A stretch of 64,000 nt of DNA, taken from assembly GCA_963693055.1 (NCBI GenBank), contig OY843751.1, positions 288,001 to 352,000 of the forward strand, given 5' to 3'. The notes under the pieces were generated by a model. It had not been told where the DNA came from and did no database searches. It was given only the letters and a program-made list of their open reading frames with translations. Origin of the DNA: a bacterium. Its GTDB lineage: Bacteria; Zhuqueibacterota; Zhuqueibacteria; Residuimicrobiales; Krinioviventaceae. The translations under genes were made by a program, and so were the position numbers. Shown here in pieces: positions 27,094 through 37,956 of this stretch (positions within the stretch are counted from its first letter, which is position 1; every line of letters begins with the position of its first letter).

Positions 27094-27918
27094 ATGAGAA
27101 AGATCGCAATTTACGGAAAAGGTGGTATCGGAAAATCCACAACAACACAAAATACAGTAGCCGGTTTGGCTGAAATGGGCAAAAAAGTAATGGTTGTGGG
27201 ATGCGATCCCAAAGCTGATTCAACCCGTTTGTTACTGGGGGGCCTGGCCCAAAAAACAGTTTTGGATACACTTCGTGAAGAAGGTGAAGATATTGAGCTT
27301 GATGATGTATTAAAAGAAGGATTCAGCAATACCAGTTGTGTGGAATCCGGCGGTCCTGAACCCGGTGTGGGCTGCGCGGGACGCGGAATTATTACTTCTA
27401 TCAATCTGCTTGAACAACTCGGTGCTTATGAGGATGACAAAAACCTGGATTATGCATTTTACGATGTTTTGGGCGATGTTGTTTGTGGTGGATTTGCCAT
27501 GCCGATACGTGATGGAAAGGCAAAGGAAATTTATATTGTGGTTTCAGGTGAAATGATGGCCATGTATGCTGCCAATAATATCTGTAAAGGTATTGTAAAA
27601 TTTGCTGATGCCGGTGGTGTTCGCCTGGGTGGTTTAATCTGTAACAGCCGTAATGTTGACAATGAATCTGCAATGATTGAAGAACTGGCCAAACGTTTGG
27701 GAACACAGATGATCCACTTTGTACCACGTGACAATATGGTGCAACGCGCTGAAATTAATCGTAAAACCGTGATTGATTATGAGCCAACACATAATCAGGC
27801 AGATGAATACAGAGCGCTTGCAAAAAAGATAGATGAAAATGAGATGTTTGTTATTCCAAAACCGTTAGAGATTGAAGAGCTTGAAAAATTATTGATCGAT
27901 TTTGGAATTGCTAATTAA
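27094..27918 (+). CDS. nifH: Nitrogenase iron protein
   Basis: [25 protein letters not shown] (Cys97/Arg100), DVVCGGF (Cys132); AAAGGA RBS before the ATG at 27094. Confidence 0.99.
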
Positions 27919-27942
27919 GAGTTTTTGACAAGGAGTGATACT

Positions 27943-28269
27943 ATGATAATGATAAGGGCGATTGTAAGGCCTGATAAAGTAGATGCCGTTTTACAGGGTT
28001 TGACCGACGCGGGGTATCCCGCGGTTACCAAGCTGCCGGTTGCCGGACGTGGAAAGCAAAAAGGCCTAAAGGTGGGCGAAGTGATTTATGATGAACTGCC
28101 CAAAGAAATGTTGATTATGGTAATACCCGAAACAGAAAAAGATTTTTTAGTAAAGACCATCATGGACCATGCAAAAACCGGAAAATCGGGTGCTTATGGA
28201 GACGGTAAAATCTTTATTTCACCGGTTGATGAAGTGTACACGATCAGTTCAGGATTTAAAGAAGCGTGA
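27943..28269 (+). CDS. nifI1: PII-family nitrogenase regulator NifI1
   Basis: AIVRP, GRGKQKG, YDELPK, GDGKIF; located between nifH and nifD. Confidence 0.92.
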   Translation: MIMIRAIVRPDKVDAVLQGLTDAGYPAVTKLPVAGRGKQKGLKVGEVIYDELPKEMLIMVIPETEKDFLVKTIMDHAKTGKSGAYGDGKIFISPVDEVYTISSGFKEA

Positions 28270-28279
28270 GGGATAACAA

Positions 28280-28657
28280 ATGAAAGAAGTGATGGCAATT
28301 ATACGAATTAATAAAATCAACCAGACCAAACGCGCACTGGCTGACGCCGGAGTGCCTTCCTTTACGGCAACCGGCAAAGTATTGGGACGTGGTAAAGGTT
28401 TGGTAGATTACCGCATTCTTCATGCAGTTGAAGAAGGCCGAGATGAAGCAATCTCTTTATTAGGACAGGGACCCCTTTTGGTCTCCAAGCGGTTGTTGTC
28501 GATTGTGGTGCCCGATGATAAAGTTAAAGTGACAGTGGATACGATTATTAAAGCCAACCAGACAGGTAATGCCGGAGATGGAAAAATATTTGTGCTGCCG
28601 GTTATGGATTCTGTTCGGGTCCGTACCGGTCAGTCCGGCGATGCAGTGTTGGATTAA
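28280..28657 (+). CDS. nifI2: PII-family nitrogenase regulator NifI2
   Basis: MKEVMAIIR, GRGKG, long T-loop, NQTGNAGDGKIF, VRVRTG. Confidence 0.92.
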   Translation: MKEVMAIIRINKINQTKRALADAGVPSFTATGKVLGRGKGLVDYRILHAVEEGRDEAISLLGQGPLLVSKRLLSIVVPDDKVKVTVDTIIKANQTGNAGDGKIFVLPVMDSVRVRTGQSGDAVLD

Positions 28658-28670
28658 TATAAAGGAGTTC

Positions 28671-35068: not shown

Positions 35069-35069
35069 T

Positions 35070-36125
35070 ATGGAAACGAATATGAAAGATACGGCATTAC
35101 AATATACGGAAATGGTGCGGCGTCAGTACCGGATTGCTTGGGTCATGGCCTTGCTGCTTGCGGCAGGTATCTTGCTTGCCCTGCATGTGGGACCGGTAAA
35201 ATTATCGATTTTGTCTTTATTTATAAACTCTGATACGAGCGCCTGGCGGGTGCTCGTGTCAATCAGAATGCCGCGTATTATGGCAGCGGTTTTGGCCGGC
35301 GCCGGATTATCCATAAGCGGTCTGTCAATGCAGAACGTGCTTCGAAATCCGCTGGCTTCTCCCTTTACGTTGGGTATATCCGGCGCGGCTGCTTTTGGTG
35401 CGGCCTTTTCGGTTATGACTTCCGGGATGCTGGGCAGTCTTGTTGCCTGGGACCCGGGTTCTTATAAATTTATTACGCCTCTGCTTTCAGGCTTTTCAGC
35501 ATTTGTGTGCAGCATGATTTCCGTATTGATCATTATCACGGTGATGAAGCATCGCGGCAGTCGTCCTTCTATTATTGTATTGGCGGGTATTATGACCAGC
35601 AGCCTGTTCAGTGCATTGACCTCGGCTTTGCAGTATTTTGCAAATGACCGTCAACTGGCTGAAATCATATTCTGGACATTTGGCGATCCGGGGCGGGCCA
35701 CGTATCCCATGCTGGTGGTACAGGCATTGATCATTCTGCCGATTCTGATCTGGATGGTGCGGCACACCTGGGATTTTACCCTGCTGCAATCCGGTGATGA
35801 TTCCGCCAAAGCTGGTGGATTGGAGCCTGCACGGTTTCGTCTGCGTGTTTTGCTGTTAGCGTCGCTTATGACGTCCATGATCGTTTCCGGATATGGCATT
35901 ATCAGTTTTGTTGGGCTTTTGGCCCCTCACTTTTGCCGTTACTTTTTTAAAAGCCAGACCATGCTGGTTACGGCATGTGCGGTGTTTGGCGGATTGTTTC
36001 TGTTATTGTCCGATACCTTGGCGCGTTTTGTTTTACAGCCGGTAATATTGCCAGTCGGCATTGTGACCGCGTTTTTTGGCGCTCCGTTTTTTATCATTAT
36101 GCTCATCAGGAACAAAGGACTATAG
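35070..36125 (+). CDS. FecCD/BtuC-family ABC permease
   Basis: IRMPRI, MQNVLRNPLASPFTLGIS, GIISFVGLLAPH, LPVGIVTAFFGAPFF. Confidence 0.95.
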   Translation: METNMKDTALQYTEMVRRQYRIAWVMALLLAAGILLALHVGPVKLSILSLFINSDTSAWRVLVSIRMPRIMAAVLAGAGLSISGLSMQNVLRNPLASPFTLGISGAAAFGAAFSVMTSGMLGSLVAWDPGSYKFITPLLSGFSAFVCSMISVLIIITVMKHRGSRPSIIVLAGIMTSSLFSALTSALQYFANDRQLAEIIFWTFGDPGRATYPMLVVQALIILPILIWMVRHTWDFTLLQSGDDSAKAGGLEPARFRLRVLLLASLMTSMIVSGYGIISFVGLLAPHFCRYFFKSQTMLVTACAVFGGLFLLLSDTLARFVLQPVILPVGIVTAFFGAPFFIIMLIRNKGL

Positions 36126-36127
36126 AT

Positions 36128-36901
36128 ATGATACACGTGAGCAAACTCGATTTTGGATATACCGAAAATCCGGTATTGCAGGATATTTCGTTTAGAGTAG
36201 CTGCCGGAAATCTGTGTGGTATTTTGGGCGCAAACGGATCTGGCAAGACCACGCTGTTAAAGTGTATGCACGGTATTTTGCCGGTAATATCCGGTAATGT
36301 TCAGATCTGCGGCAAGACAATGCATAAAATGGGTGCGCGGAAACGGGCTGCCATTGCCGCCTATGTTCCGCAGGACACCAAACAGTTTGGCACCGGCACC
36401 GTGTTTGAGACCGTATTGCTGGGCCGTAAACCCCATTTTGGATCGAATCCTTCTTGTAAGGATATCGACATAGTTTCTCAGGTACTTGCTGAACTGGAAC
36501 TTGAAGATATGGCCATGCGTCCGGTACAGACGCTGAGCGGCGGACAACGGCAGCGTGTCTGTATTGCCAAAGCGCTGAGTCAGCAAACCCCGGTGATTAT
36601 TATGGACGAACCCACTGCCAATCTGGATTTGAAATACAAGATAGAGGTAATGAATATTCTCAGCCGCCTTGCTGAAAAAGGAAAAACCATTGTCATCAGT
36701 GTGCACGACATTTCCATCGCCTATGCCTATTGTACCGAGCTGGTACTGTTGAAATCGGGTAAAATGATAGACAAGGGCGGCAAAGAGGTACTGAGTATTT
36801 CCAATATTGAAAAGCTCTATGATGTAGACTATAACGACGTTTTACCGCTGGTAGAGACCATGCCCGGTGTTGCAAATTTTTCAGAAATTGTGTGTAATTG
36901 A
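36128..36901 (+). CDS. FecE/BtuD-family ABC ATPase
   Basis: GANGSGKT, YVPQ, LSGGQRQ, IMDEPT, SVHD; the ATG at 36128 directly follows the permease stop. Confidence 0.95.
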   Translation: MIHVSKLDFGYTENPVLQDISFRVAAGNLCGILGANGSGKTTLLKCMHGILPVISGNVQICGKTMHKMGARKRAAIAAYVPQDTKQFGTGTVFETVLLGRKPHFGSNPSCKDIDIVSQVLAELELEDMAMRPVQTLSGGQRQRVCIAKALSQQTPVIIMDEPTANLDLKYKIEVMNILSRLAEKGKTIVISVHDISIAYAYCTELVLLKSGKMIDKGGKEVLSISNIEKLYDVDYNDVLPLVETMPGVANFSEIVCN

Positions 36902-36903
36902 GT

Positions 36904-37956
36904 ATGAATCGATTAATAAAATATACTGCTTTTAAAATGCTTGCTGTTCTCCTGCTATTGGGGAGCAGTGCATACTCTGCGGAATCTGTCATAACAGATA
37001 TGCGTGGTCGTACAGTTACTGTCCCGGAGAAGGTGGACCGTATTGCCTGTATTGGCAGAGGGGCGTTACGCATGGTTTGTTATATGCATGTAGCGGAAAA
37101 GGTAGTGGGTGTGGAATTCCCGGAGCGTAAAAAGACCGAGCATGCGCGTCCCTATTTGCTGGCGTATCCGTATTTGAAACAACTGCCATCCATTGGTATG
37201 GGCGCCAAGGGGGATCCCGAGTTATTGCTACAGGCCGCGCCACAGGTTATTTTTTTCGCGGATGGGAGTCCCCAGGCTGTTAACACCTTGCAGGACAAGA
37301 CCGGTATTCCGGTCATCAATATTACTTGCGGGGATCTGTATGATCGTCGTCAGGATTTTGACGATTGTTTGCGTCTGATAGCAGATATCCTCGACCGGCA
37401 GGACCGGTGCGACAGCCTCATTCAATTTGTAGATGATCAGATTGCCGAATTGGCTGCAATTGCGGAGCAAAATCAGTTAAAGGATGTATCCGCTTACATT
37501 GGCGGATTGATATTCAAGGGCCGGCAGGGCATTACCTCCACACAAGCCGCTTTTACGCCGTTTCAATTGCTGGGCATTGAAAATGTTGCGAGCGGCTTGC
37601 AGGCAAAATCCACCAATCCCGTCAACATCAATATCGAACAGTTGGCATTATGGTCCCCGGATGTGATATGTATTGACAAGGCCTGCAAAGCTCAGGTGCA
37701 AAAGGACTTGAAAGTCTATAGTTTTTTGGGTGGATTTGAAAATATGTATGAACTGTATCCCACACGGCTGTATGGAGAAAATTACGAGACGGTTCTGGTG
37801 AACGCGTTTTATCTTGCTTATGCTTTTACTGACCGGTCTATTGTCGAGTTTGAGGCCAAAACGGAAATCCTTTATGAGCGATTTTTGACACCCGGTGTAA
37901 TGGATAAAGTACGGTCAGTCTATGGCCTGCCGGGACCCTTCAGCGCGGGGGAGTAG
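36904..37956 (+). CDS. Class III (helical-backbone) periplasmic metal-chelate binding protein
   Basis: ITDMRGRTVTVPEKVDRI, VVGVE, RPY...LPSIG, PELLL...PQVI, NIEQLALWSPDVI. Confidence 0.9.
   Translation: MNRLIKYTAFKMLAVLLLLGSSAYSAESVITDMRGRTVTVPEKVDRIACIGRGALRMVCYMHVAEKVVGVEFPERKKTEHARPYLLAYPYLKQLPSIGMGAKGDPELLLQAAPQVIFFADGSPQAVNTLQDKTGIPVINITCGDLYDRRQDFDDCLRLIADILDRQDRCDSLIQFVDDQIAELAAIAEQNQLKDVSAYIGGLIFKGRQGITSTQAAFTPFQLLGIENVASGLQAKSTNPVNINIEQLALWSPDVICIDKACKAQVQKDLKVYSFLGGFENMYELYPTRLYGENYETVLVNAFYLAYAFTDRSIVEFEAKTEILYERFLTPGVMDKVRSVYGLPGPFSAGE

Follow-up and report, generated by a model that had tools for sequence, protein, structure and literature searches.

NifB is regarded as essential to all nitrogenases, and a six-gene set is the standard test of diazotrophy in genomes. 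Rhizobia without nifV receive homocitrate from their host and so resemble the locus described here as diazotrophs that outsource part of the cofactor, but in rhizobia the organic ligand alone comes from outside, whereas here the carbide-containing metal core is what could not be made. Vitamin B12 is salvaged through BtuB and BtuF-BtuCD, in producers too and essentially in auxotrophs; this pairing of a TonB receptor with a type II ABC importer may serve as a model for how the system proposed below would work. An HmuY-fold surface lipoprotein ahead of a TonB receptor is likewise known from the HmuY-HmuR system, by which Porphyromonas and Bacteroides take up heme. MolABC (HI1470-1472) is described as a BtuCD-fold importer tied to molybdenum (PMC4245157). 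Among nitrogenases, Roseiflexus nifHBDK is reported as a Mo-nitrogenase without nifE and nifN (PMC11573651), and a Bacteroidales nif cluster with the order nifH-glnB-glnB-D-K-E-N-B-fdx and modABC nearby has been published (PMC4356463), in a paper whose main text does not contain the words TonB and transporter. The present locus has the same backbone and ferredoxin as the Bacteroidales cluster, with E-N-B removed. It differs from Roseiflexus, reported as a basal lineage in which NifB is kept, in that NifB is absent, NifDK belongs to the canonical clostridial type and the loss is secondary.

Organization of the locus

The window (the whole 64,000-nucleotide stretch of DNA analysed; all coordinates are on its + strand) contains the gene run nifA-H-I1-I2-D-K-fdx, followed by an HmuY-fold lipoprotein, a TonB receptor and a FecCD-type ABC importer comprising permease, ATPase and binding protein. 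A sigma54-type -24/-12 site (25147..25161, pattern match) precedes nifA (25201..26760), which encodes a GAF-AAA-HTH sigma54 activator scoring 527.2 bits against the TIGR01817 cut-off of 528.85 and matching the NifA of a sister nif cluster, borne by genome G140, at 72%. A terminator-like hairpin of 18 pairs (26783..26826; z -7.0 versus shuffles) lies 3' of nifA, ahead of a sigma54 -24/-12 site for the nifH operon (TGGCAC-N5-TTGC, 27015..27029; pattern match). The operon starts with nifH (27094..27918; TIGR01287 459 bits, cut-off 394) and two P-II family genes matching PF00543, nifI1 (27946..28269), assigned also by position and 58-72% identity to its counterpart in related clusters, and nifI2 (28280..28657), assigned also by comparison with related clusters. 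These are followed by nifD (28671..30302) and nifK (30345..31724; model score 426.8, cut-off 427.3, with dN/dS and the tree as further evidence). The 25-nt nifK-fdx junction (31725..31749), where relatives carry nifE-nifN-nifB (3.9-4.9 kb), leads into a nif-linked thioredoxin-like 2Fe-2S ferredoxin (31750..32052; 75% to the ferredoxin 3' of nifB in G140). The importer consists of the surface lipoprotein (32084..32770), the TonB-dependent receptor (32801..35068), a FecCD/BtuC-type permease (35070..36125; Pfam), with no second one of this type in the genome by tblastn, an ABC ATPase of FecE/BtuD type (36125..36901; Pfam/NCBIfam matches) and a periplasmic binding protein (36898..37956; PF01497, closest to 2etv). 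A terminator-like hairpin, by consensus match only, is located 3' of the last importer gene (38012..38034).

The intergenic gaps from nifH through the binding protein are 27, 10, 13, 42, 25, 31, 30, 1, -1 and -4 nt. The initial annotation had described these genes in this order, and profile matches and gaps of -4 to 42 nt agree with it. Its claim of no internal terminator or riboswitch also held, as the internal gaps of the run contain no terminator-like site and an Rfam scan of 20000-45000 at E<=1 gave one match only, a sub-threshold snoRNA. The nifK-fdx-lipoprotein junctions are spanned by contigs from two studies (runs X1, X3 and X5). From this layout we infer a single transcript running from nifH to the binding protein gene.

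A nitrogenase without cofactor biosynthesis genes

The window's own genome (G000) was assembled as a single contig with a completeness of 100%; this chromosome has a two-armed GC skew, and its ends overlap by 14 nt. In the whole assemblies of G000 and a sister species (G001) the PF00148 genes are nifD and nifK only, with nifE and nifN not found. A nifB model that was positive in three of three control genomes found no nifB in the G000 chromosome or in G001. Across the whole G000 chromosome, the search for nifV returned leuA/cimA-like matches only and modA/modB were not found, and G001 gave the same results. The earlier observation that nifE/N/B/V and modABC are absent from the window was therefore borne out and, for nifE/N/B/V and modA, extends to the whole chromosome. 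G000 is thus without nifE, nifN and nifB of the six-gene minimum diazotroph set, and without the NifB on which a Roseiflexus-type NifEN-independent pathway depends. The order H-I1-I2-D-K-E-N-B-fdx-V is found in 13 of 16 reference loci and the G140 sister cluster reads K-E-N-B-fdx-modABC; the comparison indicates that E-N-B was lost between nifK and fdx, with 25 nt remaining. Loss of nifV is not diagnostic, because G140 (92% complete) is likewise without it. The importer had been said to stand in place of the cofactor genes, which is only partly correct: it occupies the modABC slot of G140 and the nifV slot of Bacteroidales, while E-N-B was lost upstream of fdx.

NifD is a canonical Mo-nitrogenase alpha chain and belongs to the long (clostridial) type, scoring 683 against a cut-off of 654 for TIGR01282, compared with 284 against 823 for VnfD and 273 against 874 for AnfD, and its best solved match is 4wes. 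With Cys275 and His442 (standard numbering) taken to be the alpha-chain FeMo-co ligands, the FeMo-co-ligand, P-cluster and active-site residues are all there in the window NifD (C271, H491, C59, C85, C151, V67, R93, Q189, H193, R356 and F378), and the protein is unchanged at sites invariant in 16 NifD of nifENB-bearing genomes. Between G000 and G001, dN/dS is 0 for nifH (24 synonymous and 0 nonsynonymous differences), 0.032 for nifD and 0.025 for nifK, at dS of 0.15-0.40, and the reading frames of the nifENB-less cluster are all intact. These ratios indicate strong purifying selection on nifHDK between two species that are both without the cofactor genes.

The same state is seen in G168, a Bacteroidales genome of a lineage unrelated to G000, with the order importer-nifA-H-I1-I2-D-K-fdx and a K-fdx gap of 11 nt. 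Genes nifE/N, nifB, nifV and modA were not found in this assembly, which is fragmented and of unstated completeness. Its NifK is sister to that of G173, a comparison genome that keeps all cofactor genes, and a single clade of nifENB-less NifK was rejected (AU p 3e-5). The G168 branch carries 178 synonymous and 17 nonsynonymous changes. As judged from these sequences, the nifENB-less state arose twice, independently.

The importer family and its regulation

The lipoprotein was assigned from its structure model, its Z score to HmuY, Atlas and its distribution. The predicted structure (pLDDT 89) aligns with HmuY 3h8t at Z 12.1 (rmsd 4.2, 145 aligned, 16% identity in the structural alignment), and the structure search gave seven HmuY-fold rows at Z 9.5-12.1, with the next, unrelated fold at Z 3.9. 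A Pfam search returned no family at E<=0.01, PF14064 included, and a relative scores 14.6 versus 27; the label "HmuY-like" is thus apt for the predicted fold but has no Pfam match behind it. One His is conserved in the close clade, though it is not invariant in the wider alignment. In contrast to HmuY-HmuR, this family has turned up solely in genomes with nitrogenase-family genes and is flanked by Mo genes. The receptor belongs to an uncharacterised subfamily (Pfam), below every NCBIfam receptor cut-off listed, with OprC as the nearest solved chain (E 1e-29); it scores 176.5 against 316.85 for the heme/hemoglobin model TIGR01785 and 50.9 against 599.7 for the B12 model TIGR01779. Unlike B12 salvage, with a receptor score so far below the B12 cut-off, there is no cobalamin riboswitch in window positions 20000-45000 or in seven related loci, and control appears to be by NifA/sigma54 and ModE. 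The MolABC-type components are present (FecCD-type permease, ATPase and PF01497 binding protein), but the system differs from MolABC as described (PMC4245157) by its additional outer-membrane receptor and lipoprotein, it is often accompanied by ModABC, and the window binding protein matches HI1472 only weakly (E 5e-5, residues 30-147, the N-lobe); those of relatives match at E 1e-12 to 8e-17. The window binding protein shares just 14-21% identity with the binding proteins in Bacteroidales modules, which suggests that the inner-membrane half was swapped and sits uneasily with one specific cargo.

Every genome in which the lipoprotein family was found has nitrogenase-family genes. The initial annotation had proposed to check homologs for nif linkage; PF00148 genes were present in 26 of 26 genomes carrying the lipoprotein (22 at E<1e-120), and most carriers have D, K, E and N only. 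In a background sample of 301 genomes from one host order, 30 had nifD (~10%); the core lipoprotein family was seen in 4 of these 30 and in none of the 271 nif- genomes (p 8e-4 when the centre genome is left out, kin not being independent). Among Mo users of a random sample, the importer family was present in 3/29 nif+ versus 0/19 nif- genomes (p 0.27, not significant alone). Importer loci are flanked by ModE-like, ModD, Mop or modABC genes in 10 cases and by NifO in one. A general anti-correlation with nifENB had been predicted and was not found: nifB is kept in 26 of 29 importer genomes and modA in 18 of 26 carriers. With modA also present in so many carriers, plain molybdate is an improbable cargo, and the importer looks like a nif-regulon accessory that permitted loss of biosynthesis in some lineages. 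In favour of cofactor import, nifB is present in 25/26 nif+ genomes without the importer, nifK lying at a contig break in the exception. Literature searches did not find a nif- and Mo-linked TonB importer family.

In relatives, an upstream palindrome is common to importer promoters (12/13) and nifH promoters (14/16; shuffles 0.29 and 0.43). The importer promoters also have a sigma54 site (14/18) and a ModE-like inverted repeat, GTTAT...ATAAC (14/18; shuffles 0.03; modA loci 6/14), with the same core as the reported ModE motif RTTATGT-N8-RCATAAY (PMC12327845) and a spacing 1-2 nt shorter. Since the Bacteroidales promoters share the nifH motif, sigma54 site and ModE-like box, the importer looks nif- and Mo-regulated rather than of heme or B12 type. 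The window promoter has the sigma54 site and is without the Bacteroidales palindrome; no ModE box with 11-nt spacing was found at 24000-39000, and two ModE-like queries gave no tblastn match in G000.

Proposed cofactor import and its alternatives

The reading we favour, at a probability of about 0.5, is that the importer brings in preformed FeMo-cofactor and is optional in producers and obligate in nifENB-less lineages. Under nitrogen shortage, NifA/sigma54 would switch on the nifH-to-binding-protein transcript; the Mo-containing cluster, released free or protein-bound by other nitrogen fixers, would be captured at the surface by the HmuY-fold lipoprotein, enter the periplasm through the TonB receptor and reach the cell interior by way of the binding protein and the FecCD-type ABC transporter. 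Apo-NifDK, its P-clusters assembled by NifH and the housekeeping SUF system, would then receive it. For relatives that retain nifENB, salvage through the importer would be optional, on via NifA and off via molybdenum (ModE), and at least two lineages would thereby have been able to dispense with nifE, nifN, nifB and modABC. Free FeMo-co is sensitive to oxygen and does not last long in water, no cell is known to take it up, and a literature search on its stability found nothing. This lability counts against FeMo-co import, as do a window without ModE gene, ModE box or Bacteroidales motif and the retention of nifB by most carriers, which a Mo-chelate importer explains equally well. The initial annotation had offered cofactor salvage as its bold version, and although the general anti-correlation with nifENB proved wrong, salvage gained support from the genome-wide absence of nifENB and nifV, the purifying selection and the independent lineage with the importer by nif. 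Of its conservative version, heme/Fe uptake is disfavoured by homologous modules among Mo genes with ModE-like boxes. Activation of apo-NifDK in vitro by added preformed FeMo-co is reported (PMC11573651).

Possible, though doubtful, is a high-affinity route for complexed Mo (molybdophore or thiomolybdate), a TonB-coupled MolABC counterpart replacing modABC; the cell would then make its own cofactor, either with nifENB carried on a replicon that was not assembled or through a NifB-independent route. The position in the modABC slot of G140, the ModE-like boxes and Mo genes, the many carriers with nifB and the HI1472 matches of relatives all fit such a cargo; type II ABC importers are described as able to carry molybdate (MolBC, PMC4245157), and tetrathiomolybdate is reported as tested as a methanogen Mo source (PMC11484787). 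In one species nifENB is reported 29 kb from nifHDK (PMC4356463), and it may lie on a plasmid missing from the G000 and G001 assemblies. However, nifENB would have to have been missed in three assemblies of two lineages, one a closed chromosome. Moreover, in the nifENB-bearing genome G175, where nifENB is apart from nifHDK, fdx and nifV moved along with it, whereas in the window fdx stays 3' of nifK, and NifB is kept in 8/8 partial nif sets of one survey table (PMC11773926).

Alternatively, the imported compound may be NifB-co (L-cluster), the precursor that contains no Mo, which would mature on NifDK or be used there directly, as in the Roseiflexus pathway that lacks NifEN. Such uptake would make NifB unnecessary, and maturation in situ on NifDK is described (PMC11573651). 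We consider it improbable, as it requires molybdate and homocitrate while modA and nifV are absent, the Mo-type control in relatives points to a Mo-containing cargo, and NifD has no invariant-site changes hinting at a new scaffold role. Slightly less probable again is that the importer supplies iron (as heme, siderophore or Fe-S protein) to the iron-rich nitrogenase proteins and is linked with nifENB loss by coincidence. The HmuY fold speaks for iron, as does heme being the best receptor model, albeit at 176 versus a cut-off of 317, and the Methanosarcina ModE regulon is reported to include clusters annotated as Fe ABC transporters (PMC12327845), but that methanogen link is tied to alternative nitrogenases, while the majority of the present carriers possess D, K, E and N alone, and how a nifENB-less nitrogenase stays under selection would be left unexplained. 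Very improbable is a decaying relic or assembly artefact that fixes no nitrogen; the incomplete six-gene set is as expected for one, but no frame is broken, two species sharing the loss show a dN/dS of 0-0.03, contigs of two studies bridge the junction and the same state arose twice.

At even odds, FeMo-cofactor would be a public good like vitamin B12, served by a NifA- and Mo-controlled TonB salvage importer in anaerobic diazotrophs, of which at least two lineages would be cofactor auxotrophs fixing nitrogen without nifB, nifE and nifN. Such a cofactor-importing nitrogen fixer would break the NifB/six-gene rule, and nifHDK-only genomes now dismissed as incomplete may be active. FeMo-co would be able to survive extracellularly, at least protein-bound, and nitrogenase engineers would gain a means of decoupling cofactor synthesis from catalysis, in the form of a protein that binds the cofactor and a route for its uptake. 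Even a weaker reading still leaves a nif- and Mo-linked TonB importer family and a nitrogenase conserved without known maturation genes.

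A nitrogenase operon continuous with an importer

The initial annotation described a continuous run nifH-I1-I2-D-K-fdx-lipoprotein-TonB receptor-permease-ATPase-binding protein, with neither internal terminator nor riboswitch, and this description is borne out: gaps are 42 nt or less, the internal gaps contain no terminator-like site, and no riboswitch was found. The run begins downstream of nifA, with a sigma54 site at position 27015 of the window, and its arrangement suggests co-transcription from nifH to the binding-protein gene (36898). A contig from sequencing run X1, possibly the source sample, spans 26019–38400 with no differences, and one from X5, a separate study, joins nifK, fdx (2Fe-2S ferredoxin) and the lipoprotein gene, showing 148 differences over 2,781 bases. 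The nif-importer feature is real, and more striking than the initial reading. The lipoprotein (32084) has no Pfam match and is HmuY-like by predicted fold (pLDDT 89, Z 12.1); a Foldseek search with the model gave no match at E ≤ 0.001, and HmuY chains were nevertheless top-ranked.

Between nifA and the nifH promoter lies a perfect inverted repeat of 18 pairs (window 26783–26826), which could be a terminator or paired activator sites. Upstream of nif, at 13019–23784, is a polysaccharide-use locus with a hybrid two-component regulator, a SusC-like receptor, a FlgD-Ig-tailed protein and a chondroitinase-B-like protein. Elsewhere in the window's genome, G000, are another NifA-like activator (49%), oriented divergently to a P-II/ammonium-transporter-like/glutamine-synthetase-like run (C1:5427947–5439263), and a second lipoprotein-TonB receptor pair (C1:1476343–1481032), whose receptor is 30% identical to that of the window and whose two following genes, judged by their starts, presumably resemble nickel/cobalt uptake proteins.

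The absence of nifE, nifN, nifB and nifV, claimed for the window together with that of modABC, extends to the G000 chromosome, as does that of modA and modB. G000 is a single 6.535 Mb contig (completeness 100%), most likely a closed chromosome given its two-armed GC skew and 14-nt end overlap. Its only PF00148 genes are nifD and nifK, and nifB was found neither by the curated model, nor with three authentic NifB proteins as tblastn queries, nor by a profile built from 13. Two PF02579 matches, considered as concealed NifB, both belong to an unrelated cluster of ATPase genes at about 2.94 Mb; of the 29 long ORFs that bear a radical-SAM-like motif, not one has NifB flanks. The best nifV-model matches are leuA/cimA-like genes inside an ilv-leu operon. 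Queries with modA, modB, ModE, Mop and NifO gave no match in G000, and its one PF12849 match, a lone protein, looks by its start and its neighbours like a phosphate-binding type. A SUF-like operon was found by motif. G001, a second species of the genus (completeness 98%, three contigs), carries the same operon at 92–100% identity to the window and lacks the same genes. Contigs from four runs aligned on the nifE-N-B of G140, a genome of the same class, in short patches only, from several other organisms. Across the phylum, PF00148 genes occur in 5 of 167 genomes and the lipoprotein in 2. Besides those described here, nitrogenase-like genes of the phylum were seen at L016 (G034:C45:1–4615; nifB-like, D/K-like and H-like) and on G110:C22.

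Apparent loss of nifENB in two nitrogenase-bearing lineages

Gene order is H-I1-I2-D-K-E-N-B-fdx-V in 13 of 16 reference loci. Two of the three exceptions are halves of one cluster that split, with fdx and nifV moving along with E-N-B; the third, L101 (G171:C1:5778700–5783600), is a second nifH-I1-I2-D-K copy that lacks nifENB, its genome having a full cluster elsewhere. The nearest complete cluster, that of G140, has the order K-E-N-B-fdx-modA-modB-modC, and its NifK (apparently P0110, labelled candidate division KSB1) is sister to the window NifK clade with support of 100/99. E-N-B, which measures 3.9–4.9 kb in three relatives, is therefore gone from the 25-nt nifK-fdx junction of the window, and the importer occupies the position of G140 modABC. 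Because nifV is absent from G140 as well, its absence from the window genome is of little weight, and a scheme of two separate deletions (E-N-B, then V) was abandoned. Two further members of the window NifK clade (80% and 84%) lie on contigs of 206,863 and 11,926 bases; solely from equal contig sizes, we infer that they are co-located with close homologs of the lipoprotein and binding protein. On the shorter contig E-N-B could fit solely at the tightest spacing observed. Four genomes have no bearing on loss: G255 (nifK at a contig break), G191 (a fragment), G182 (nitrogenase-like genes only) and G192, whose one broken cluster (L132, G192:C8:19300–31000) has several frameshifts or stops, from assembly error or decay.

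The window NifD scores above the curated cut-off, aligns best to solved structure 4wes, retains all examined ligands and shows no substitution at positions that are invariant across 16 NifD from nifENB-bearing genomes. Between G000 and G001, nifH shows 24 synonymous and no nonsynonymous differences, and dN/dS is 0.032 for nifD, 0.025 for nifK, 0.03–0.14 for the importer genes and 0.06–0.09 for four flanking non-nif genes. The nitrogenase of both genomes is intact and under selection.

A second, independent nifENB-less lineage is G168 (Bacteroidales), where the importer, on two contigs overlapping by 191 nt, directly precedes nifA-H-I1-I2-D-K-fdx, K and fdx being 11 nt apart within a single contig. 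Neither nifE/N, nifB, nifV nor modA was found in this assembly (completeness not stated). Its NifK is sister to that of G173, which retains nifENBV, modA and the importer, and a joint clade with the window group was rejected (p-AU 3e-5). Across H, D and K, the G168 branch carries 178 synonymous and 17 nonsynonymous codon changes, counted over the whole branch, anywhere along which the nifENB loss may fall; G173 has 140 and 9.

Distribution and regulation of the importer family

A motif-based scan gave 49 pattern matches, of which 27 loci in 26 genomes, mostly Bacteroidales, were confirmed; four metagenome loci were added. All 26 genomes, G001 included, contain PF00148 genes, with E < 1e-120 in 22. 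As background, nifD occurs in 30 of 301 genomes of one carrier order, where core lipoprotein matches (E < 1e-60) were found in 4 of 30 nif+ versus 0 of 271 nif- genomes; of another five, weak matches (E 1e-9 to 1e-16), one was in a nif+ genome and four were in nif- genomes. An overlapping sample of 151 G168 relatives gave three core matches, all nif+. Several carriers are close kin (five are Saccharicrinis), so p values for the nif association are overstated. One carrier is a Labilibaculum isolate. Most loci lie far from nif genes: within 10 kb of the lipoprotein, linkage held among the 31 loci for nif structural genes in G001 and nifA in one, and failed in the rest, with longer stretches adding G178, G183 and G168. 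Physical linkage was consequently dropped as a general test. The predicted general anti-correlation with nifENB was also rejected, as nifB is kept in 26 of 29 importer genomes, against 25 of 26 importer-free nif+ genomes that served as control.

At L028:12965–19867 and most Bacteroidales loci, the importer is accompanied by SBP_bac_6/DUF1858 proteins that lack an evident signal peptide, together with a GTPase of HypB/CobW-like type and an ABC ATPase that has no permease. The trio possibly forms a cytoplasmic cargo-handling module; it is missing from the two nifENB-less loci, those of the window and G168. Two Bacteroidales-type loci, L039 and L041, come from records labelled Selenomonadaceae and Porphyromonas cangingivalis, perhaps wrongly.

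Among 21 selected neighbour proteins, ModE-like, ModD, ModA, ModB and Mop domains mark 10 importer loci and NifO one; the ModE-like domains score 59–91 bits, under the 98.5 cut-off, and ModD, ModA, ModB and Mop score above theirs. In the 150 nt preceding the lipoprotein gene, CGTTAT-N10/11-ATAACG (≤1 mismatch) occurs in 14 of 18 loci (shuffles 0.03), as does a sigma54-like site (shuffles 0.01) by a relaxed pattern picked after inspection of the sequences; the strict consensus occurs in 0 of 18, the -12 element being mostly CTG. A palindrome, TAC[AC]-N4-[TG]GTA, precedes 12 of 13 importer loci (shuffles 0.29) and 14 of 16 nifH loci (shuffles 0.43), and the CGTTAT repeat lies near 6 of 14 modA loci; the patterns were derived from importer promoters, so that independent testing comes from the modA and nifH sets. 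Methanosarcina ModE binds RTTATGT-N8-RCATAAY (PMC12327845), and genes for Mo uptake are repressed by ModE (PMC11672702). Together with the promoter motifs, this makes the unlinked importers look like nif-regulon members shut off by molybdenum. modA is also present in 18 of 26 carriers, and moaC in none of five genomes tested, so nitrogenase is likely the carriers' main Mo sink. Six Bacteroidales modA operons (L116, L122, L124, L126, L127, L129), most behind the same ModE-like box, begin with a gene whose 400–430 aa product has no assigned family and may be a molybdate porin.

The cargo of the importer

In known pathways, NifB makes the carbide-containing precursor and the NifEN bypass requires NifB (PMC11573651); NifB is likewise kept in all eight partial nif sets tabulated in PMC11773926. 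A selected, canonical NifDK without NifB implies a cluster from outside, unseen genes or an unknown route. The sole module added in both nifENB-less lineages is the nif- and Mo-linked importer, whose architecture resembles importers of large metal cofactors. On this genomic evidence, uptake of preformed iron-molybdenum cofactor (FeMo-co), obligate where nifENB is absent, has a probability of roughly one half. The main objections are that free FeMo-co is labile, that the binding protein of the window is swapped (14–21% identity to those of relatives) and that most carriers are able to synthesise the cofactor themselves.

Import of a Mo-chelate would suit the molybdenum-linked promoters and calls for nifENB genes unseen in the searched chromosome or an unknown route; it is possible, if doubtful. 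Import of NifB-co, which would bypass NifB, is improbable. Supply of iron, by an importer that is Mo-linked and not a heme system, is quite improbable, and a relic, as the missing nifENB might suggest, is very unlikely for a nitrogenase under selection. A similarly small share of the probability is assigned to none of these readings.

FeMo-co import would act like B12 salvage, by uptake of cofactor made by others; the sequencing runs aligned on the G140 genes also contain other nifE- and nifB-like sequences, so donors are plausible. B12 salvage is an analogue, the importer itself not being a Btu system, and the cluster is not a Roseiflexus-type pathway. G000 also carries a xanthine-dehydrogenase-like three-gene set with moeA and MocA-/XdhC-like genes, named by sequence starts (C1:69356–76962), and lacks moaC and modA despite this set; its molybdopterin cofactor may likewise be salvaged.

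A literature search by title and abstract start, mostly outside subscription journals, returned no such importer or cofactor auxotroph, nothing joining HmuY, nitrogenase and molybdenum, and no relevant FeMo-cofactor cross-feeding. Whatever its cargo, the importer represents a new nif-linked family, and it would be categorically new if that cargo is the cofactor.
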